A stretch of DNA of 56,317 nt, filler included, from Catajapyx aquilonaris (lineage: Eukaryota): NCBI GenBank assembly GCA_000934665.2. It is 3 parts of 3 records of this genome, joined end to end, with 100 filler letters (N's around TTAATTAATTAA, not from the genome) between each part and the next. Parts side by side here need not be neighbours in the genome. Positions count along the whole stretch, not along the records: positions 1 to 18,802 come from KZ539572.1; 2 more parts are not named here. One strand, 5' to 3'. The notes beneath the pieces were generated by a model, which saw nothing but the letters and a program-made list of their open reading frames with translations, had not been told where the DNA came from and did not search any database. Below, one piece after another: positions 1,721 through 37,706 of this stretch (its first letter is position 1; every line of letters starts with the position of its first letter). The position numbers were made by a program, and so were the translations under genes.

Positions 1721-2204
1721 ATAAGGTGAATGTCGTATAATCTACCTTGGATATTCCGGCGTGCCGGCCACCCCCGGGTTATACCAGCACGTACCCTAGT
1801 CGACCTCGTTTTATACCGGCATGCCGCATAATACGTATAAATAGGGTAAAAGACTAGAGCCGTCACCGTTGGAATGGACCCAGTGTTCCGTGTGGCACAC
1901 CCTATTTGGGGGATGTAATGCTACAACAGCTTTTTCATGAAGGAGGTACGAAATGCTTATTGTACTGTAGACAGGGCGGATACTTCCGGTCACTGCTAGG
2001 CGTCGTTGCGGACATCCCCGCATTAAGGTGGTTGGGTAGTGAATCTTAAGTCAAATCAGAGCCTGTGAAAAACATTCCAAAAGTTGAACTTAAAATTCGG
2101 AACTAGGGCTCCCTACTTACAAGACTACTTATAATGTCGGAAACTGCACTGATTTTGAGGTATACACTGCAAAATATATTTTTTTGGCGTAGAAACTGAC
2201 ATGG

Positions 2205-3760
2205 TTCAGGCCAGGGTAACCTACATGGTTGCCTCCCCCACCCTAGAGAGGGTACTGTCTCCACGTAGTCCTTATGGGGCGGCCATATTGGAACTTGATT
2301 TCCGGCGGGATTTCAAATTTCAATGCTGCAGTATAGGAAATTGGCAATAGTTTAATGTTTTTTTTCACGGACATTTTTGGATATTCAGTGGAAGTGAAGT
2401 ATGGAAACTTGAGATAACCTACTTACACATGCATACGAAAGCCCCTTCTCTTCACTGCACTCCTGCCCTCCTCCCCAGGGGCCCTATTGACAATGAGTAA
2501 AAGTAAAAGCGAATCCATGCGATATGAGGATTGTCTGTTGTTGTATTATTATAATTATCATTATTATTATCATTATAATTTTTATTATAATTTTATTATA
2601 ATTATCATTATAATTTTTATTATAATTATCATTATTATCATTATTATTATCATTATAATTTTTATTATAATTATCATTATAATTATCATTATAATTATCA
2701 TTATAATTTTTATTATAATTATCATTATTATCATTATTATCATTATTATTATAATTATCATTATTATCATTATCATTATTATCATTATTATAATAATTAT
2801 AATTATAATTATTATAATAAATATAATATATAATAAAATATAATAAATTTGAACAATGATTGTGTAGTAATAATGATAATGATAATGATAATTATCATTA
2901 TTATCATTATAATTATCATTATTATCATTATAATTATCATTATTATCATTATAATTATCCTTATTACTACACAACCATTGTTCAAATGGCGTACATGCCA
3001 TCAGGGACACTGTGGCGCCATTTCCGCCGACATTCTCAGATAGTGTGTCAGTGTCTTTGAGAGTAACCCTTATTGTTTCTTCCTGAAAAGAAAATGCCCC
3101 GGGATCTAGGGTTCTTCAAGTAAGTATAATAATAATAATGATAATAATGATAATTATAATGATAATAATAATGATAATGATAATGATAATAATAATGATA
3201 ATTATAATAATGATAATTATAATAAAAATTTTAATGATAATTATAATGGTAATAATAATGATAATTATAATGGTAATAATAATGATAATTATAATGATAA
3301 TTATAATGGTAATTACAATGGTAATTATAATGATAATTATAATGATAATGATAATTATAATAAAAATTATAATGATAATAATAATAATGATAATTATAAT
3401 AATACAACAACAGACAATCCTCATATCGCATGGATTCGCTTTTACTTTTACTCATTGTCAATAGGGCCCCTGGGGAGGAGGGCAGGAGTGCAGTGAAGAG
3501 AAGGGGCTTTCGTATGCATGTGTAAGTAGGTTATCTCAAGTTTCCATACTTCACTTCCACTGAATATCCAAAAATGTCCGTGGAAAAAAACATTAAACTA
3601 TTGCCAATTTCCTATACTGCAGCATTGCAATTTGAAATCCCGCCGGAAATCAAGTTCCAATATGGCGGAGAGACAATACCCTGTCTAGGGTAGGACGGCA
3701 CTCATGTAGGTTACCCTGGTCTAGGGTGAGGACGGCACTCATGTAGGTTACCCTGGTTCA
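2205..3760. repeat. Long internal palindrome with ATT/ATC microsatellite inner arms
   Basis: 2282-~2560 is a near-perfect inverted copy of ~3390-3666. Looser homology extends to ~2205 and ~3760, the inner arms are (ATT/ATC)n versus (AAT/GAT)n, and a unique spacer lies at ~2970-3120. Confidence 0.92.
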
Positions 3761-4002
3761 GGCAGGTCCGAGCAGGCTTGCCAACCTTGATGAGCCTGTG
3801 GCCGATATGTTTGACATGATCTAAAAAGGCCTCAATATGGCCTTAGCATCCTGAAATGGACACTCAATTGAACGTACGAACCAAATGCAACAAATATGTC
3901 CGTCATACTTTAACAATATTCGACATTATTAGCGTCCCTTTGCGGCACCTTTTTGTGCGTAGGTTGGTAGTGAGGTCCGGCAACAGCGCAATCCCTTCCA
4001 AA

Positions 4003-7000
4003 ATGGCGGCCCCCATCCGAAGCCGGTCCGGTCGTTTTGCAAAGCAAAGTTTCCTTGCAAGAGCATCGAAAGCGGCCAAGGCGAGGTGGGACCCAGGAGA
4101 TGGGCCAGCAGATGGGCCAGGAGATGTTCTTTCTGATGGCAACAAGTGCGTCGTTGAGGGTCGCCGGATCATTGACATGGGTGTTGTCAGTGACGGCATG
4201 TGGTGTGGACTTTGCAAAAGAGGCCTGTGTTTTCGGGACGTAGAAAAGGAACAGTCACGGGGTCTGGCTGCGATTTGGACGGTTCGCTGCCCGACTTGCC
4301 TGGACTTGAAGGAAGTGCACACTTCAAGGACTTACGTGGGCCAAGGGAATTCACGTGCACGGCATGTGGTGAATGGCAAGGCTGCTTTTGGTAAGCACAT
4401 CCATTATGGTTTATTTACTGCTGCATTCACCAATAACACTAGGTCTATTCGTTTATGGGCTGGTGTAGCACTAGTGTAGCACTGGTGTGACACCAGTACA
4501 AGCACTGCAGTAAATTTATTCCAGTGTAAGCTCAGGTGCACGCTCTGATTGGACAGTGCAGGCCAGTGCATCATTACACCGGCCTTGCATTGGCCCTTAC
4601 ACTACACTGGCCGATAAACTAATGGACTTTACTGTTCAGCACGGTTTCAGCCATATGGAACATTGATGGTGTACGTAATAGAAGTTTTTATGCTGAATTC
4701 AAATATGCAGTTGGAATCTTTTTCTGTGACCCACAGTCCTTCTATTGCTACAGTACATTTTCCATTGGACAAACGTTTTAACTATTTTCACAGTCAGGCT
4801 ACTGATCCATAATGCACTAATAATAATAATAATAATGTTTGTTTCAACAGGAGTGATTGATTCTGGGATAGGCCCCACCCAACTAAACACCTTTCTGACA
4901 GCCTTGAACATCCCTGCAATTTCTTCAAAAACCCTACAAGTAGCAGAGAAAGATGTTGGGCCAGGTCTTGTGGCAGTTGCGGAGGAAAGCTGTAGAGATG
5001 CCCTATTACTTGAAAAAGATCTAACTCTGCAGAACCCATTGTAAGTATCTTGTTCTTTGACTTTTAAAAGAATAATAATTAATAATGCCATGGTTACATC
5101 GGCGTATTTAAGGGGGGGGAGGGGTGTGTGGGTGGGTGTGTGGCACAAACATGTGTCAATTTCTAGGTGAGGGTGGCTGTAATAATATTTATCGCTATTG
5201 AATTCACTGCATTTTTTGAAGTGATGAATGTCTGATGGCACAAACCTGTGAGCATGGGTCATAGTGGTGTTCTGACCTCCGGTCTTAGTTTTATAACCCA
5301 TGTGGACCAATATTGGCTCACAGCATACACCAGCTAATTCCTTTTAAAAATACGATAAATGCCTGATGCAAATCGAATTGCACTTTATTAAAAAGAATTG
5401 GTTAGTTCTTGGAATTCGTGACATGAACCACATGCAAGTTTCAATGTGATTCCCTTGCCTTCTTCTATTTCAGGCCTTTACAAGAGCCTGATCCTGAGGG
5501 TCCTGATGGTTCTGTCCCAATCGCAGTGTCCTTCGATATGGGTTGGGGGAAACGGGGAAATGGAAGGACTTATGACAGTTTGACGGGGCATGCCGCAGTA
5601 ATAGGTTTTCATTCAAAGAAGATTGTGGGTTACACAACCAAAACAAGAAAATGTAAGATGTGTGATCGTGGAGTGCCACAGGAAAACCACCAGTGCATGG
5701 GTGTCTTTCAGGGCAGCGCCAAAGCCATGGAGCCAGCAGCTGCAGTGGATCTTTTGACAGAAAAAAACAAGAATTTGGAGGAGGCAAATGTGCGAGTAGC
5801 AGTGCTCATAGGTGACGATGACAGTTCGACAATAGCAGCAGTCAGGAGCAACAGTCATGGGCCAATTACAAAGTGGTCCGATTTGAACCATGCATCAAAA
5901 GGACTGAGCAATTTTTTGTGGGGGTTGAGGCAAAAACATAAGGTGCTGAATCCCAGAACAATAGAGTATTTAAAGTCATGCTTCAGCCATGCCCTTTCAC
6001 AGAACAGGAATGACACGGAAGGAACCTCAGATGCAGTGACAAACATAGTGAATCATGTATTTGGTTCCCATGAGAAGTGTGGCAGTTGGTGTCGGTACCT
6101 GCAGGATCCCACCACCTACAAACACCGTGGACTTCCTGGAGGTCATGATCTGGAAGGAGAGGAACTACGAAAGGACCTGCAAGACATTTTTAGCAGATTT
6201 GCCAAGAATGCAGGGAGACTTTCTCCAGGGGCATCAACTCAAGCCAATGAAAACTTTAACAACATGGCTGTAACCAAGGCACCAAAGAATAAGTTCTATG
6301 GAGGGAGTGGGAGTTTGCATAGGCGGGTTTCGGCGGCAGTGAGCCAGAAGAACATCGGAACCATTCATGCTGTCGCAACTTACCAGAAGCTTGGTTTGTC
6401 TCCTGGATCTGTGACTGAACAATACCGGAGAAGAAAGGACCAAGTGAGAAGGTGCAGGCAAGAGAAGATGGGGACAAAAGAAGTGAAAGCCCGACGGCTC
6501 TTCCTGAAGAAGACCAGGGCAATGATGCGTCGCGGAAAGGAGCAGAGGGAAGGAGTATCATACATGGCTGATTCAGGCTTTCTCCATTCCAGCACTTCGC
6601 CACATCCTAGCCATGACATTGTGTCACGGCCAATACCAGGTGACAGCAAAGTTGTGTTTTTTGATTTGGAGACAACTGGGTTTGGGGCCTCATCTGAAAT
6701 TGTACAGGTAGCTGCTAAATGTGCAGGCTCTTTCGAGCCCCCTTTCAGTGTATATGCATTGCCAGTGAAGGGGATACCAAAGCTTGTCATCAGTGACAGG
6801 ACTCACCAAATGTGACGATGAGCTGTTGCTGCATGGGCAGATAGTACAAACTTCTGATTTGAAGAGTGCCTTGAAGCTGTTCCTGAGTTTCCTCAGGCAA
6901 GTGGGGAAACCTATTGTGCTGGTTGGGCACAACTGTGACACATTTGACATCCCGCGTCTGTGGCGTGCACTATGCTCTTTTCACTTGGAGAGTGAATTTT

Positions 7001-7515
7001 GTGGTTTCATTAGTGGTGTCACTGACACATGCAAAGTACTTAAAGCCCTTCCTAAGGAAGACAGTACGAAATGGGAAAAGCAGTCATCATACAAGCAGTC
7101 TGCTCTCGCAGAAAAGTTTGTTTCAGGATACAATGCCACAGGAGCCCATGAAGCCGCTGCCGACGTCAGGACTCTGGAGCAGATATGTGATGCGCTGCAG
7201 CTCACCCAGATGCTTGTGCATAGGGCTTCTTCAATTGGTGATGTAGTTGAAAGGCAGGTCAGGCGTGACAGGCAAGCCAAAAATGGCCCAAGCCTTCAAG
7301 GTCTGATTGGGATTATATCAAAAGGGATGGTAGCTAGGTTGGCTGGAGCAGACATTCCACTGTCCAAGTTGTTTGACAGCTACCAGTGTGGTGGACCACA
7401 AGGGATAAAAATGCTGTTGGGGGAAAACATTGGTGATGGAAGGCCCCGTGTAACAAAATCAAGACAGGTCATACAAAAAATTGTGAATTTTTTCAATGGA
7501 AAAATGAAATGTTGA
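4003..7515 (+). CDS. Kolobok-type DDE transposase fused to a DEDDh 3'-5' exonuclease and PML-C-like domain (3 exons, one frameshift)
   Basis: Exons 4003-4390, 4851-5040 and 5474-7515 join in phase via GT-AG introns (~870 aa). N-terminal CxxC...CxxC; triad SFD / IGDDD / QANE; HxxxxHxxCxxxC motif; exonuclease motifs VFFDLETTG, LVGHNCDTFDIP and AHEAAADV; C-terminal GRPRVTKS. Frameshift at ~6785; AATAAA at 7577. Confidence 0.85.
4441..4628. mobile_element. Small MITE-like inverted repeat in intron 1 of the Kolobok gene
   Basis: GGTCTATTCGTTTATGGGCTGGTGTAG pairs imperfectly with CTACACTGGCCGATAAACTAATGGACT. Confidence 0.5.
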
Positions 7516-10121
7516 TGTTTGTTATATTTATGAGCATGCCCTATGGCACAGATACCAATAATGTTAATTATGAGAAAATAAATGTCAATTTTTCAGGCCA
7601 AACAAGGTTTTCTATTTTAAATCTGTGATCGAATGTTTTTGTCCTGCAGTTTGTTGACTGTCACCAAGGAAAAAGAGGTACTGTACGGTAGCCTAAATAT
7701 GGTCATCATGCAAGGAAGTGTATCGTCAGGGAATATAAAGGGAGTCCATACTTACAGAACTGTGATTATCACCTTAAAATTGCCATAATCAAATATTTTT
7801 GTGGTAGAAATCTTCAAAGGTACTATGGGGACAATGGAAACAGGACACTCTCCAGTGGCTGGCCACATCAAGTTGGTGTCCTATGGCTAAATTATGCATG
7901 CTTATCAACAAGGCAACAAAATTAGCCCTAATGGATGTTTTGTGTCATAATATAGGAGTAAATTATTTTATAATGCCATGTAATAAGTGCAAATGCACCA
8001 GCAAAGCGAGGTTTTTATTATCAGCTTATTTAAACTGCTAAAGACACTGGAAAACTGCAGGTTAATGTGCGCTTTTAGAATCGATGAATATTATTAACGC
8101 ATATCGATAATAATCTGCGTATCGATAATCTGCATATCGATACGGCACCCCCTCCGGCGGCGCGGCGTTGCCGCTTCGTACATCCCGCTAGTGCACTACG
8201 TCCAGTTAATTGATACTTACGGCTGAACGGAGCCGGTGACATTGCGATTTTCTGCGGCTAATTAACTCTACGCAGTTCAAGCTTTAAAGTGAATAGTTTT
8301 TTTGTAAATATTATAGCATTTTAAAGTTAGATTTTTGGCATTTTTTGCTGTTTCTGGCCGTTTTCCCATAAGGACAATGATAAAATTAGCTATGTATAGG
8401 TGTCGGTGGTTCAATAAATTGACCGGTAAGTACCCTTTTTTATGGGTTTATTTTAAAGAGCACACTTTTTTTTCTGTAAATCGTGCAATTTTCATGAACT
8501 TCTTAGGATGTGGCCATAACTACCCAACCACCTTAAGAGGGGTGTGGAGTGGTCGGTGTAGCGGTGTGTCCAACATTCTCACATAGGCGTTCTTCTCCAT
8601 CCATGAGGGTCTTACACGGAGGGAAGGATTGAAACGGAGTGGTCAACGAGCGGGATTGTGCCCGTTGGGGAAAAAGGAGAAAAAGGATGTGCGTAACCAT
8701 GGTCAATAGCCAACAACGACAACGATGTGCCAATCCCACTTCTGACACCACTGTGACCGTACGTACACGTGGGTGCACCAAATAAAATGCGTTGTAGTGA
8801 CAACAGTATGTATTCACGCTATGACTCTTACAGGTGGGGTTGAAGGGAACAGGGTGGTGACCAGCGCGACTGGCCTTGTTGGTAGTAGGTAGTGACCAGG
8901 GCGACTGGTCACGAACAACAGTCGGACAGGCCTTACATAGGCGAAAACCGCGAGGCATGATGGTAGAAATAGCAGATAAGACAGTAATCCAGAAGGGAGA
9001 TTGCACAGTGAAATATATGTGGACATACAAAAGTGAAACAGGGTGATACGCGGTCTTGGTATACATAGTTGTCAACCTTAAAATTAAACAGGTCATCAGT
9101 GCTGTCACAATAGCAAAATGTTTCTCTAAATGTGGGGGGGGGGGGGGGGGGAAANAGGACAACGCTTTTCCCGATTCTTAGGACACAAGCAACCGGACTC
9201 ACATAGTCACCTCGCAGACTCAAAAATCGTGTTGACTACTTTTATCGACATAATGGCTTCCAGAAAGGGTTAATTTTACATGATACATCTTGGGTTACAT
9301 CCAATGGCCGACAATAACTTCCTGTTCAAACTGGCCATAGGTTATGCACTATTACATTTTTAGACATTTACACACAGTTTTAATTGCAGATTGTCGATAG
9401 CAATGAAGAAGCCATGATCACATCTGTTGAGCCAGCAGTTTCTGCTGAAGATGCCCTTAAAGAGCTATCTGTAAGATTCTCTCTACGTTATATATTCTTT
9501 GATATATGATCACTACTGTACATAACATACTGTCTCTCTTTCTTTCCCCCTCCCCCTCTCCCCTTAAAAATTAACCTCCACAACTCTTGAAGATATTGGA
9601 AACATGCTGGAAAACCTCGACGGTTAAGAGGGAGAAATTTTAAATGCTCCTGAGAGCATCATTTGCAGAGAGAAACAGGAATCCTCCCCATTCCTTGCCA
9701 GTGTTTCTGTGCCAAGAAGAAGGGGTACGCATGTTTCCTGTTTTGAAAATCTAAGTTATTGCTGTTCCAAATGTTAACCTCTTTTATCTTCTTTGTAGCT
9801 AACTATAGAGGCCGAGATATGGTTTCAAAAGTCAATGGATGATTTGGAAAAGCATTGCGGGCAAGTGATTGAGAACCTGAACAGGTCACTCAATACGGCA
9901 ACCATAATGAGCCTTCATGACGTGGAGAAGTACCTGCGCTCTCCGCGCTCCATTCCTGACCTGCTCATCGTGGCATGTAAATTGTTATATACTTGTACAA
10001 CCCTATATAATACAAAAGTATTGGCCCAACTGGGGAGGATGAGGGGGGGGGGGGNNNNNNNNNNNNNNNNNNNNNNNNGGGGGGGGGGGGGTGTTACGGA
10101 AAACAGGCCAATGAAAAGCCT

Positions 10122-17060: not shown

Positions 17061-17649
17061 GCTGCACCAGCAAGAAACCAGCACCAGTAGTTTGACGACG
17101 GATGAGAGTGATGCTGACGAACCACGCGCTATTATTGGTTTGTTACCATATTATACACCATATTTGTGCATGACCTGTACCGGATCTAACTTGGGCACAT
17201 GTTGAATTATAGACTGTGCTTGAAAACATTTACTATGAATTATCATTTGCGGAAAAGTTACAGTTATGGCATAACATTAGTGTGTGATTGGTTTTGCACT
17301 AAAAGCTAAAACTAATTTTATTTGAATAACCAGGTGGAACTGAAATTCTGAGTTCGCAACTGTCATCCAGCTGCAGCAGTTCATCAGCCATTCATACAAG
17401 CTCAAGCCCACTTGGACATACTTTACCAGGACTAACTGCTGTTGCCAGATGCTTCGCTAACCAAACTTCCTATTCAGGTAAGTGTGTCAGTGGTTTTCTG
17501 ATCATTTTGCTTGGACATCACATATTTTATTCCGGTTTTCACTACTGGCAGCTTGATTATTTCAAATCATTCTTCATGCATTCATAAGAAAGTTTCATCT
17601 CTTTTTTTTGTTTCATTTCAGAACATGATGAACTTCAGAAAAATAGCAG

Positions 17650-18690
17650 ATGTGTAAATTGCAACAATGCAAGGGTTTGGGCAGCCCTTTCATCCATGGA
17701 GTTAAAGTTCAGATTAAACATCACTATAAGCAGATTGAAACTCATGAACATTCTGTTGCCCATGACATTGCTGTGAAAGCCTATCTACAGATCTGCAAAA
17801 GTAAGGATCTTGAAACACTGATGGGCAAGGACATGCCAACAAAACGACGAAGTGACATCGAAGTCAGAAGGCAGGTGGTTCACAGGTTAATCCACATAAT
17901 CTTGTTCATTGGCAAGCAAGGACTAGCGTACATTGAAATTGCCGCAGATCTCAACAACAGATGCATAAACCACGGCAACTTCTTAGAACTGGTCATGCTG
18001 GTTTCTAAATATGACCAGATCTTGAAGACACATGTAGACATGGTCATTCAGAGAAGCAAGGAGCGTATGGAAAAACATCCTAAATCGCAAGGAAGAGGTT
18101 CCCTTATTACTTTCCTATCAAAATCGTTCATCAACAAAGTAATCAAATATTTAGCCATTCAAATACAACTCGACATTGCTAGTGAAATTCCGCAAGCAGG
18201 CATCTTCAGCATAGAAGTGGATTCCACACAGGATGTTTCTGTTCTAGATGAACTACCGCTGTGTGTTAGATATGTGCTAAATGGAACAGTCTCTGTGAGA
18301 TTGTTGAAGCTGACTGTTGCAAAGAAAACAACAGGCGAGGCACTCCACCTTCAGATAAAGGAGGAACTGCAGAAGTTTAACATCAGCACTAAGAAAATTA
18401 TAGGGTGCTCATTTGACGGAGCTGCCAACATGAGCGGCCAATATAAGGGGCTCCAAGCCCAGCTTCGAAAGGATAATGATTCCCTGATATACGTGCATTG
18501 TTGTGCTCATGCTCTCTATTTGGTATTAACAGAATGCACAGAAAGTTGCAGGGAAGCCAGGGATTTTCTTGGTCTCATGCAGAGCACAGCTAAGTTCATC
18601 TCAGAATCTCATAAACGCATGCTGGTTTGGACTAAAGTTAATGCAGAGTCCGCCGAAGGTCATGAACTATTGCGCCGGCTTCAGAAGGTT
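17650..18690 (+). pseudogene. hAT transposase, ZMYM1/DUF4371 (Tip100-like) type, truncated
   Basis: GKQGLAY, NHGNFLELV, FSIEVDSTQDVS, CVRYV, TTGEAL, SFDGAANMSG and YVHCCAH motifs. Cut at ~18690 by unrelated GC-rich sequence before the catalytic Glu and dimerisation domain. Confidence 0.9.
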
Positions 18691-18802
18691 AACTCGCTTT
18701 GCGAGGCGGGGGGGCTGCGCCCCCCCCCCCACCCCCCCGTGGGGCTGCGCCCCACGTGCGCGCCTTCGGCACGGTGCCCGTGTACCGCCTAATCCATCCG
18801 GT

Positions 18803-18902
18803 NNNNNNNNNNNNNNNNNNNNNNNNNNNNNNNNNNNNNNNNNNNNTTAATTAATTAANNNNNNNNNNNNNNNNNNNNNNNNNNNNNNNNNNNNNNNNNN
18901 NN
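18803..18902. other. Artificial contig spacer
   Basis: 44 N + TTAATTAATTAA + 44 N = 100 nt, with stops in all frames; identical to the second spacer. Confidence 0.97.
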
Positions 18903-20312
18903 TTCTGCGGGGAGGGGGGGACGCCTCGGGTCAGGCCACTGGGGGACTACCAGCTGGGTCAGGCGGGGCACGGGCTGAAGGGGCTCTTCAGGGGCAGATT
19001 TGAACACATGAACGGGAAGAAGTTCAGGGCGGGAACATACTTGGAATTCCCTTTCGAAGAGTCCAGAAAGGTTATGGAAGAGTCTGGGGAAATCGCAACT
19101 AATGGTTATGCCCGGGCAATGTTTCTGATGGAAGCAAAGCTGAACGTGAGGATGGAGGTTTATGTCAAAAACTTCCAAAGTGATGAAATAGATTATCAGC
19201 TACCGAATAGGACCTGGGTAGGTATTGTTAGAGATATTCTTTCTGGTAAGGCCGATATTACAACAGGTATGATCGCCTCGGATGCAACATATCCTTACCT
19301 CCTTCATCCGCATCCGTACGGTTATGGACACGGGACCTTCCTGACCCGACACCCCGAGGGAGTGATCAACTGGCGGGTCATATACAAACCCTACCCTCTG
19401 GCCTTCTGGGTCTGCTTCTTGGTCACACTCGTCCTGGTCACCCTGGCCGTCAACCGACTCTCTCTGTGGAGATCCGGACAGGACGAACAACATCTGCACC
19501 GACCTTTGACCTTCCTCCAGTCCATGGGTCTCGTCCTCCGTCACCTCCTGGAGCAGCCCATCCACTTCCCTCGCACCAGACGGTTCCTGGTCCTGGCCTC
19601 CTTCTACCTCCTCGCCTTCGTGATGGTGGTGGTGACCGGGTACAAGGCCAAACTCGTGGCCTTCCTGACATGGCCTCCAAGGGAATTTGTCCCCTCAAAT
19701 ATCCATGAATTGCATAGATCTGATTGGAGAATAGAATCAAACATGTTTTACTCCATAGTTATGAGTAAGTTCGGGAGAGAATCAAATGATGCTCTTCTGG
19801 TGGAAATTGTGGAAAGAGTTGAAGTGGCCGACACTTTCCGAAGCTGCCTGTACAAGACCAACAAAGAAAATGTCGTGTGCATGGGCATCAACGTTTTCAT
19901 AGAGCAGGACGAGCTGCATTGGTTCATGGACACCTCCGCCCAACTGACCGTGAGATTCTCCGAGGATCGTTTGTGCCCATCTTACGTGTCGACGCCCATA
20001 TCTCGAGGAGACACATCCTTGTTCTACCTCCTGCAGAACTTCTTTCGTATGACCAATGATTGCATGGACCTCACCCGCAAGTTCTTGTCCGACGATCGTT
20101 ACATGAGATTCCTTCGTCGACTGAAGGTGATTCGAGCTGAAGAAGAGAAGAGAGAGGCAGAGGTCCTCGCAGACGAAGTTCTGACCGTTCGCAAATTATC
20201 TGCAATTTTTCATATCTGGCTCGTGGGTCTCCTTCTGTCCCTCGTCTTATTTGTACTAGAAATTTTAAAGAGGAAAAAAAGAACAAACAAGCCCTTAATA
20301 TTTCTGAGATAA
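18903..20312 (+). CDS. Divergent ionotropic receptor (variant iGluR-family chemoreceptor), 5'-truncated at the contig edge
   Basis: Frame is open from the contig edge. S1-like WxGxxxDILSGKAD, pre-M1 IYKPY...FW, pore-like LRHLLEQ, M3 VVVTGYKAKLVAFLTWP, S2 region and M4 LTVRKLSAIFHIWLVGLLLSLVLFVLE. Intronless over the visible part. Confidence 0.85.
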   Translation, partial: FCGEGGTPRVRPLGDYQLGQAGHGLKGLFRGRFEHMNGKKFRAGTYLEFPFEESRKVMEESGEIATNGYARAMFLMEAKLNVRMEVYVKNFQSDEIDYQLPNRTWVGIVRDILSGKADITTGMIASDATYPYLLHPHPYGYGHGTFLTRHPEGVINWRVIYKPYPLAFWVCFLVTLVLVTLAVNRLSLWRSGQDEQHLHRPLTFLQSMGLVLRHLLEQPIHFPRTRRFLVLASFYLLAFVMVVVTGYKAKLVAFLTWPPREFVPSNIHELHRSDWRIESNMFYSIVMSKFGRESNDALLVEIVERVEVADTFRSCLYKTNKENVVCMGINVFIEQDELHWFMDTSAQLTVRFSEDRLCPSYVSTPISRGDTSLFYLLQNFFRMTNDCMDLTRKFLSDDRYMRFLRRLKVIRAEEEKREAEVLADEVLTVRKLSAIFHIWLVGLLLSLVLFVLEILKRKKRTNKPLIFLR

Positions 20313-36137: not shown

Positions 36138-37606
36138 TTATCTCAAACACTTAGAAAACATCTTGTGCTTCCTTCTCTTAAAAACCTCTGCAACAAACAA
36201 GACTAGACAGAGAAGGAGACCCACCAGCCAGATGTGAAATATTGCAGACAATTTGCGAACTGTCAGAACTTCTTCTGCGAGGACCTCTGCCTCTTTCTTC
36301 TCTTCTTCAGCTCGAATCACCTTCAGTTGGCGAAGGAATCTCATGTAACGATCGTCGGACAAGAACTTGCGGGTGATGTCCATCCAATCATTGGTCATAC
36401 GAAAGAAGTTCTGCAGTAGGTAGAACATAGGTGTGTCTCCTCGAGACACGGGTGCGGACACGTAAACTGGCAACAAACGATCTTCAAAGAACCTGACAGT
36501 CAGTTGGGCGGAGGTGTCCATGAAGCGATACAGTTCTTCCTGCTCTATTAAGACGTTGACGCCCATGCAGGCAACATATTTTGCAAGAGTTTTGTACAAG
36601 CAGCTTCGAAAGGTCTCAGCCACTCGAATTCTTTCCATCAATTCTTTTGCTACAACATTGTTAGAAACCTTTATATACTTGCTCATTAATATGTAATTGA
36701 ACATGTTTGTCTCTACACTCCAATCTGAATCATGCAATTCCTGAATATTGATTGGGACGAATTCCCTGGGAGGCCAAGTCAGGAAGGCCACGAGCTTGGC
36801 CTTGTACCCGGTCACCACCACCATCACGAAGGAGAGGAGGTAGAAGGAGGCCAGGACCAGGAACCGTCTGGTGCGAGGGAAGTGGATGGGCTGCTCCAGG
36901 AGGTGACGGAGGATGAGACCCATGGACTGGGGGAAGGTCAAAGGTCGGTGCAGATGTTGTTCGTCCAGTCCGGATCTCCACAGAGAGAGTCGGTTGACGG
37001 CCAGGCTGACCAGGACGAGTGTGACCAAGAAGCAGACCCAGAAGACCAGAATGTAGGGTCTGTATATGACCCGCCAGTTGATCACTCCCTCGGGGTGTCG
37101 GGTCAGGAAGGTCCCGTGTCCATAACCGAAAGGTGTCGGATTCAGCAGGTAAGGAAGTGTCTCCTCGGACAGGTACAAACCAGCTGCTAGGTCGGCTTTT
37201 CCAGAAAGAATGTCCCCCAGCAGACCTTCCCATGTTCCGTTTGGCAGCCTAATATCAAAGTCATCCTGTTGTAGATCTTTGACATAAAATTCCATCGTCA
37301 TGTTCAGATATTTCTCGAGGATCAGCATTGCGCGTGCGAAAGCATTCACTGCTATTTCTCCAGACTCCTTCCAGACCTTCCTTCCCTCTTCAAAGTGCAT
37401 GTCTAAGTAGCACCCTGCCCTGATCTTCTTCCCGTTCATGTGCTCGACTCTGCTCCTGAAGAGCCCCTTCAGCCCGTGACCCGCCTGACCCAGCTGGTAG
37501 TCCCCCAGAGGCCTGACCCGAGGCGTCCCCCCCTCCCCGCAGAAGAAGCAAGTGTCCTCCATCCTGAGCCTCCCTCCTTCCCCCTTGGGACTGGTGACCA
37601 CCTTCA
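36138..37606 (-). CDS. Divergent ionotropic receptor, paralog of 18903-20312, 5'-truncated at the contig edge
   Basis: 487-aa open frame collinear with the first copy: LPNGTWEGLLGDILSGKADL, VVVTGYKAKLVAFLTWP, LTVRKLSAIFHIWLVG. Confidence 0.85.
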
Positions 37607-37706
37607 NNNNNNNNNNNNNNNNNNNNNNNNNNNNNNNNNNNNNNNNNNNNTTAATTAATTAANNNNNNNNNNNNNNNNNNNNNNNNNNNNNNNNNNNNNN
37701 NNNNNN
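37607..37706. other. Artificial contig spacer
   Basis: 44 N + TTAATTAATTAA (37651-37662) + 44 N. Confidence 0.97.

Follow-up and report, generated by a model that had tools for sequence, protein, structure and literature searches.

Kolobok DNA transposons are defined by TTAA duplications, purine-purine and pyrimidine-pyrimidine (RR/YY) termini, a C/DxxH signature and a zinc finger that precedes the catalytic E of the transposase (PMC9587614). Within this superfamily a lineage named KolobokD is defined by a DEDDh exonuclease, is among the few lineages with a CCHC finger, and is listed from molluscs, arthropods and cnidarians (Kojima & Bao, Mob DNA 2022;13:24, PMC9587614). We analyzed a stretch of 56,317 nucleotides from Catajapyx aquilonaris (hereafter the window), for which an earlier reading, made from the sequence alone, had proposed a complete Kolobok-type transposon with a transposase fused to an exonuclease at positions 2023-8536. 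With a probability of roughly 0.92, these positions hold one copy of a cut-and-paste, TTAA-inserting Kolobok DNA transposon of the KolobokD lineage. The agreement with that lineage (PMC9587614) extends to the TTAA duplication, the RR/YY termini, the DDE residues with DxxH, both zinc fingers and the downstream DEDDh exonuclease, whereas the window copy, unlike the published description, is frameshifted and carries a nested insertion. The transposase-exonuclease architecture was thus already named in 2022 and hence is not new, as the sequence-only reading had itself cautioned that it might prove to be catalogued.

Other closely related systems include the Plex9 and PML exonucleases. Plex9 genes are host genes, syntenic with the PML locus, and PML together with an active exonuclease domain first appears in jawed vertebrates (Mathavarajah et al., NAR 2023, PMC10123124). 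An arrangement of an exonuclease with a SAM-like domain (EXO-SAM) has been described for human PML-1 and for Exuperantia in a 2026 paper on PXL (PMC13659232), and Kojima & Bao noted similarity of the KolobokD exonuclease to Exuperantia, TREX and ERI1 (PMC9587614). We found no paper in the open-access literature searched that joins Kolobok to Plex9 or PML. Indeed, the words transposase, Kolobok and invertebrate are absent from the available text of the two PML papers (PMC10123124, PMC13659232), and that of the KolobokD paper (PMC9587614) mentions neither a SAM-like PML_C tail nor Plex9 or PML.

Ends, gene and transposase of the Catajapyx element

The boundaries of the element can be read directly from the window. 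An 18-mer, TTAAGGTGGTTGGGTAGT, composed of TTAA and GGTGGTTGGGTAGT, occurs in the 56-kb window exactly twice, at 2023-2040 on the plus strand and at 8519-8536 on the minus strand, against a chance expectation of 0.04 matches; two occurrences were not reached in any of 100 shuffles. These sites comprise a left TTAA target-site duplication (2023-2026), a left 14-bp terminal inverted repeat (TIR; GGTGGTTGGGTAGT, 2027-2040, plus strand), a right TIR (8519-8532, minus strand) that is its perfect complement and lies in a region of high read depth, and a right TTAA (8533-8536). The two ends are identical over the 14 bp inside TTAA and divergent thereafter. The termini read 5'-GG (2027-2028) and CC-3' (8531-8532), in keeping with the RR/YY pattern of Kolobok, and TTAA stands directly outside both TIRs, as the 4-bp Kolobok duplication should, in the one copy checked. 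Self-BLAST revealed no second copy of the element in the window, returning just the arms of a nested foldback insertion and microsatellite noise. The element is ~6.5 kb long with that insertion and ~4.95 kb without it.

Between these ends lies one gene on the plus strand, which from reading frames and splice signals consists of three exons with GT/AG borders. Exon 1 (4003-4390, GT donor at 4391) contains the ATG, a basic N-terminus and an N-terminal Cys-rich part of the transposase; exon 2 (4851-5040, AG acceptor at 4849-4850, GT donor at 5041) continues the transposase; and exon 3 (5474-7515) opens with a first frame (5474-6785) that holds the DDE catalytic core, a linker and the Exo I motif of the exonuclease. 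In a Pfam scan the model PF20700 was spread in order over the three exons, with positions 1-74 in exon 1 (E 3.7e-05, under the Pfam cut-off when scored alone), 80-139 in exon 2 (E 7e-12) and 145-357 in exon 3 (E 2.7e-45). The conceptual product of 873 aa can be aligned over its entire length with ten homologues (852-1096 aa). This homologue alignment and the ordered PF20700 coverage lend the predicted three-exon splice model good support.

The DDE triad and zinc motifs noted in the sequence-only reading could be located by homologue alignment on the plus strand of exon 3. D214 (SFDMGW; D1, 5535-5537), D307 (LIGDDD; D2, 5814-5816) and E452 (NENFNN; 6249-6251) form the triad, and their columns are conserved in the homologue alignments. 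A DxxH motif, DLNH (residues 329-332, 5880-5891), likewise conserved in these alignments, lies between D2 and E in agreement with the C/DxxH signature of Kolobok. A CCHC finger follows D1 (C253-x2-C256...H265-x-C267, 5652-5696), as the second finger of KolobokD would, and the finger expected of Kolobok between DxxH and E is present as H-x5-H-x2-C-x3-C (HVFGSHEKCGSWC, 6054-6092). The predicted model of the core (pLDDT, predicted local distance difference test, 85) aligned best in VIA-align to the ISCth4 (Z 9.3) and Hermes (Z 9.2) transposases over 198-210 residues, helical insertion domain included, although a Z of about 9 is modest, being slightly above the usual best score of unmatched models. 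Foldseek returned nothing for the core model at E <= 0.001, and a sequence search of the core against the PDB gave no match at E up to 10. Modest scores of the predicted fold would agree with the relationship of Kolobok to MuDR, hAT and P that has been published. The transposase is a DDE enzyme with an RNase H fold, a helical insertion domain and two zinc fingers.

Membership in another TTAA-using or Mutator-type superfamily, that is piggyBac or the Mutator-like elements (MULEs), might be argued from the Pfam label of PF20700, 'Mutator-like transposase', and from best structural matches that include ISCth4, an IS256-type enzyme, but is very improbable. MULEs make long target duplications of about 8-10 bp, whereas this element has the 4-bp TTAA, and it has a finger between D2 and E that is not a MULE trait. 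Indeed, MuDR, P and hAT are stated to lack a zinc finger in the interval from DxxH to E (PMC9587614). The TTAA duplication is common to Kolobok and piggyBac and would in itself allow either, but the GG/CC termini are as stated for Kolobok and unlike those of piggyBac (PMC9587614). Furthermore, PF20700 was the sole transposase family matched at E up to 1 in a scan of four coding pieces, no piggyBac domain being among the matches, so that the transposase also belongs to another Pfam family. Against both alternatives stands a motif string, SFDxxWQKRG...CxxC...HxC...SAKxME...DxDSTT...NH...H...CGxWC...NESFN, which the window protein has in common, by eye, with the curated families Kolobok_9_CGi, 7_CGi, 1_CGi and 1_ADi in the Kolobok alignment (Data S5, PMC9587614). 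Since this string occurs in curated Kolobok families, the 'Mutator-like' label of PF20700 would cover Kolobok enzymes as well. The label 'KolobokD' is absent from the four supplementary files of the same paper.

A search for homologues among longer proteins found 23, which combine PF20700 with PF00929/PF22123 and PF25244 (PML_C); by precomputed annotation PF20700 is present in 23/23 and PF25244 in 17/23. Their identity to the query over the first frame of exon 3 is 32-44%. Homologues of full length, with 38-44% identity, are known from insects, bivalves and hemichordates, and the named sources of the 23 proteins are a damselfly, parasitoid wasps, beetles, oysters, Solemya and the hemichordate Ptychodera flava. 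With the best named homologue at 44% identity, the window element is, as judged by sequence comparison, a new family in KolobokD. By the same measure the Ptychodera flava homologue would slightly widen the published host range of the lineage.

A broken exonuclease frame within a multicopy family

The exonuclease lies downstream of the transposase in the same exon, which is the defining arrangement of KolobokD, and all five DEDDh residues are present, namely in DLE (Exo I, 6663-6671), HNCDTFD (Exo II, 6928-6948) and the H...D of Exo III (7147-7164; H at 7147-7149, D at 7162-7164). In the window copy, however, the frame shifts within this domain between Exo I and Exo II. Two frames overlap at the break, which homologue alignment places at 6779-6786; the upstream frame hits a TGA at 6813-6815, and a second frame on the same strand (6787-7515) carries Exo II, Exo III and a SAM-like tail (about 7288-7500) before the stop TGA at 7513-7515. 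The tail matches Pfam PML_C with an E of 4.8e-13 and 49.6 bits, against a cut-off of 27.1. Therefore, the fusion of a Kolobok-type TTAA transposase to a DEDDh exonuclease and a PML_C-like tail, as originally proposed, is upheld by motifs, Pfam, profile and fold matches, and so are the perfect TIRs with their TTAA flanks. Two other parts of that proposal need amendment. The copy is complete in its perfect ends and its full-length transposase frame, but its exonuclease frame is broken after Exo I and a foldback element is nested in its 5' part. Similarly, one spliced gene of about 870 aa describes the three exons and the conceptual product well, yet the frameshift at 6779-6786 means that it is not a single clean reading frame.

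To examine the break and the family, contigs of four DNA read sets were aligned to positions 3761-8536. A contig of 2638 bp (4272-6909) matches the window with 0 differences and reproduces its frame break in all four read sets; the reads themselves therefore contain the break, which is not confined to the assembly. Paralogous contigs of ~90% identity (two per read set, in four sets) contain an additional letter after 6778 and another after 6784, keeping the frame open there, and none of the ten aligned homologues needs a frameshift at this site. Together, the exact contig and the in-frame paralogues indicate that the break is a real mutation of the window copy, not an intron or a programmed shift. 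A fully coding copy, with the break due to a sequencing or assembly error or to programmed frameshifting, is suggested by the small size of the break inside an otherwise open 2-kb exon and by the origin of all reads from one sample, but is very unlikely: the exact contig spans the break in every run, and the contigs that differ there are paralogues from other loci.

The reads also bear on whether the element recurs in the genome. Summed contig depth is 450-880 over 3761-4080, falls to 18-46 over 4721-6320 and rises to 170-1290 over 7761-8536, the terminal bin (8401-8536) alone reaching 639-1293 against 18-30 in the interior, so that the element ends are roughly 20-40 times deeper than the interior. 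Deletion joints spanning 3.1-4.1 kb of the interior were found at 4000>8061, 4102>7703, 4289>8134, 4289>8158, 4300>7430 and 4348>8134, with further joints at 7045>7880 and 6091>6572. The element is thus a real multicopy family in Catajapyx aquilonaris, and depth and joints give the usual picture of few long copies and many short non-autonomous derivatives with common ends. Positions 6641-6960 are covered three to five times as deeply as the transposase core (4721-6320), and the genome seems to contain the exonuclease half in a greater number of copies than the core. Those paralogous contigs that preserve the frame at the exonuclease break have themselves lost segments of the transposase (6091>6572, 6426>6506); given these deletions and the break in the window copy, no copy is shown whole in the read data. 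The window copy has retained its transposase frame, and other copies have retained the exonuclease.

A word-index search for homologues of near length with the second frame alone gave no match among 760 candidates, and a profile search then yielded 12. An exhaustive profile search with the exonuclease and tail module reached 1155 cluster representatives at E <= 1e-30 and 5038 at E <= 1e-10. Among the best 150 representatives, 146 were new, and the transposase-part profile matched 66 of these and not the other 80. Many of the 80, at ~270-350 residues, may represent incomplete gene calls. A protein-cluster look-up returned just clusters of the same family. One member of the family (P0024, E 1.1e-80) is named by NCBI 'protein PML-like [Ptychodera flava]', which makes the suggested link to invertebrate PML-like exonucleases a reasonable one; P0024 also matches the transposase-part profile upstream of its exonuclease. 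The PML-like name and the 80 of 146 new representatives with no transposase match could be taken as signs that the window gene has been domesticated by the host, as a 'PML-like' exonuclease of invertebrates derived from a transposase, and is no longer a mobile element. We regard this as highly unlikely, given that the gene lies between perfect TIRs flanked by a TTAA duplication, that its ends are 20-40 times as deep as the interior and occur in deletion derivatives in the reads, that its frame is broken, and that a foreign element sits upstream of its start codon.

Several points weigh against the assignment to KolobokD as a mobile family. Pfam names PF20700 for Mutator and not for Kolobok, and kinship to the curated Kolobok families was compared by motif string. 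TTAA flanks were examined at one full copy only. The four read sets come from one sample, which is probably the source of the assembly, and are thus not independent of it. Finally, the predicted splicing of the three-exon gene is deduced from homology alone.

Kinship with Plex9, PML and Exuperantia

The exonuclease was compared with solved structures at the level of both sequence and predicted fold. Used as a query against PDB sequences, the second frame of exon 3 matched 9l8b (3.5e-14), 9mrd (7.2e-10), 9mrc (2.5e-09) and TREX1 (~1e-06); the first three chains carry the name 'exodeoxyribonuclease III', and 9mrd and 9mrc are zebrafish Plex9.1. A profile built from ten transposon-borne exonuclease modules and searched against the PDB sharpened this order, with E-values of 8e-58 for 9l8b, 1.9e-47 for 9mrd, 7.4e-47 for 9l85 and 3.4e-46 for 9mrc, followed by Exuperantia (4e-19), a PolC exonuclease (9e-16), TREX2 (1e-11) and TREX1 (about 1e-10). 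Because the module of the window copy is broken, that of the Ptychodera homologue was folded instead, with the alignment of the transposon-borne modules as input. The resulting model of exonuclease and tail (pLDDT 92) superimposes on the fish Plex9 structures with TMt 0.92-0.93, a root-mean-square deviation of 1.7-1.8 A and 31-32% identity, the values for Plex9.1 being TMt 0.92 and 1.8 A. The same model (281 residues) aligned with the EXO-like and SAM-like pair of Exuperantia over 276-311 columns. This fold match, combined with the PML_C match, identifies the Pfam PML_C tail as the SAM-like domain of the EXO-SAM pair.

The nuclease tail of KolobokD is the nearest known relative of the Plex9/PML exonucleases. 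The window gene combines a DEDDh domain closest to Plex9 with PML_C, the features by which membership in the PML/Plex9 family was judged here. It differs in context from these host genes, PML having a TRIM/RBCC N-terminus and Plex9 being a stand-alone syntenic gene, since it begins with a transposase and is bounded by TIRs. The fish Plex9 proteins (9MRC and 9MRD for Plex9.1; 9L8B, 9L85) are the closest solved relatives and have intact DEDDh residues. None of the four fish proteins in our protein set has a transposase fusion, two being single-domain (188 aa) and two having a tandem exonuclease pair, and PML_C was found in none of the four, either in precomputed Pfam annotation or in our own scans. 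The C-terminal module of PML-I (CDE or PXL; PMC10123124, PMC13659232) is the same pair of EXO and SAM-like domains, compared here via the Pfam PML_C model, behind a TRIM/RBCC N-terminus instead of a transposase. Drosophila Exuperantia (PDB 5L80) has the same EXO-like and SAM-like arrangement at a far greater sequence distance (~20% identity), and is itself described as a pseudo-nuclease and RNA-localisation factor. TREX1 and TREX2 have in common with the element the DEDDh fold and 3'-5' DNA exonuclease chemistry, but they are much more distant (profile E 1e-11 to 1e-6, TMt 0.63-0.70) and the matched chains have no SAM-like tail.

Tandem repetition of the module was observed in several of the proteins collected. 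In P0036, P0038 and P0040 (Anabrus simplex) and in the fish proteins P0037 and P0041, the exonuclease module matches two to five separate stretches. The two fish proteins, named 'exodeoxyribonuclease III', have tandem Plex9-like domains.

The direction of descent was approached with a tree of the exonuclease. Its 44 ingroup rows comprised the window sequence, 32 transposase-bearing sequences, seven with no transposase match and four fish Plex9-like sequences, with E. coli dnaQ and three phage exonuclease genes as outgroups and no PML sequence in the set. In the free tree the fish clade (Shimodaira-Hasegawa-like approximate likelihood ratio test, SH-aLRT, 99) lies three nodes inside the transposase-bearing sequences, at supports of 85-93. 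One outgroup, RL2RES, aligned over just 36% of the columns and was removed before an approximately unbiased (AU) test, in which a tree with all non-fish sequences as one group was not rejected (p 0.80); this constrained tree was 15.7 log-likelihood units better than that of the quick free search.

Transposon-borne forms are spread widely, in the insects, bivalves and hemichordates named above and, as reported, in cnidarians (PMC9587614), whereas PML and Plex9 are narrowly distributed, having been reported from jawed vertebrates only, and this difference would make domestication of a transposon-borne nuclease the more economical reading. It is thus possible, at somewhat less than even odds, that the KolobokD exonuclease with its SAM-like tail gave rise to the vertebrate PML exon-9 and Plex9 nucleases, and perhaps also to Exuperantia in insects. 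In that case, PML would date from the capture of the tail by a TRIM gene in jawed vertebrates, and internally deleted elements that retain the exonuclease half only, of the kind indicated by read depth and joints in Catajapyx aquilonaris, would represent the intermediate.

Other features of the window and implications

The foldback element that interrupts the window copy is 1544 bp long (2212-3755), has the termini CAGGGTAACCTACATG and is foreign to the Kolobok element proper. It sits between the left end of the transposon and the start codon and is flanked by an 8-bp target duplication, GTTCAGGC, at 2204-2211 and 3756-3763. Two arms (2282-2591 and 3357-3666), each of 310 nt and 97% complementary to the other, enclose an AT-rich microsatellite core, and the right arm also holds a tandem duplicate of ~37 bp of the terminus. 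The 8-bp duplication and the CAGGG terminus suggest what we take to be a hAT-type non-autonomous element. Contigs of other copies of the family cross the site with no insertion (loose end before 3771; four contigs each in X1-X3), and the insertion is therefore confined to the window copy or its near relatives.

In the 3' subterminal region of the transposon, four of the window's 11 copies of the palindrome ATCGAT are packed into 62 bp (8080-8141), with none near the left end; these may be binding sites. Elsewhere in the window, two long single-exon open reading frames (ORFs) at 18855-20312 (plus strand) and 36138-37658 (minus strand) weakly match the ligand-gated ion channel model PF00060 at E 3.6e-07 and 2.7e-05, both under the Pfam cut-off, and by sequence look like ionotropic-receptor-like genes in opposite orientation. 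Paired runs of 44 N interrupt or border these ORFs (18803-18846 and 18859-18902; 37607-37650 and 37663-37706). A further ORF (17647-18792, plus strand, 381 aa) matches DUF4371 at E 6.7e-08, a domain that we associate with hAT-related, transposase-derived proteins.

In intact members of the family, the transposase would cut at the GG/CC termini and join the element into TTAA by DDE chemistry. The most likely role of the tethered, putative 3'-5' exonuclease would be to trim 3' ends, either those of the excised element or those at the donor gap, an assignment that we make tentatively; processing of ends by the exonuclease during transposition has been proposed before by Kojima & Bao (PMC9587614). 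A less likely putative role, which we consider doubtful, would be the removal of free DNA or retroelement intermediates in the manner of TREX1 or Plex9. The sequence-only reading had put forward either end processing or a counter to silencing as putative roles of the nuclease. The window copy itself would at most yield a 640-residue transposase with no working nuclease, and its intact ends may still allow mobilisation in trans.

As a transposon copy, the element is ordinary and represents one further family of a lineage that received its name in 2022. It is of value as a well-bounded example, in which the ends, the target duplication, the full gene model and the defects have all been mapped. 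The Plex9/PML exonucleases, whose nearest known relative is the KolobokD tail, restrict retroelements in fish. If the direction from transposon to host is true, it would explain the origin of the C-terminal domain of PML, and would add one more nuclease derived from a DNA transposon to the components of immunity and genome defence.

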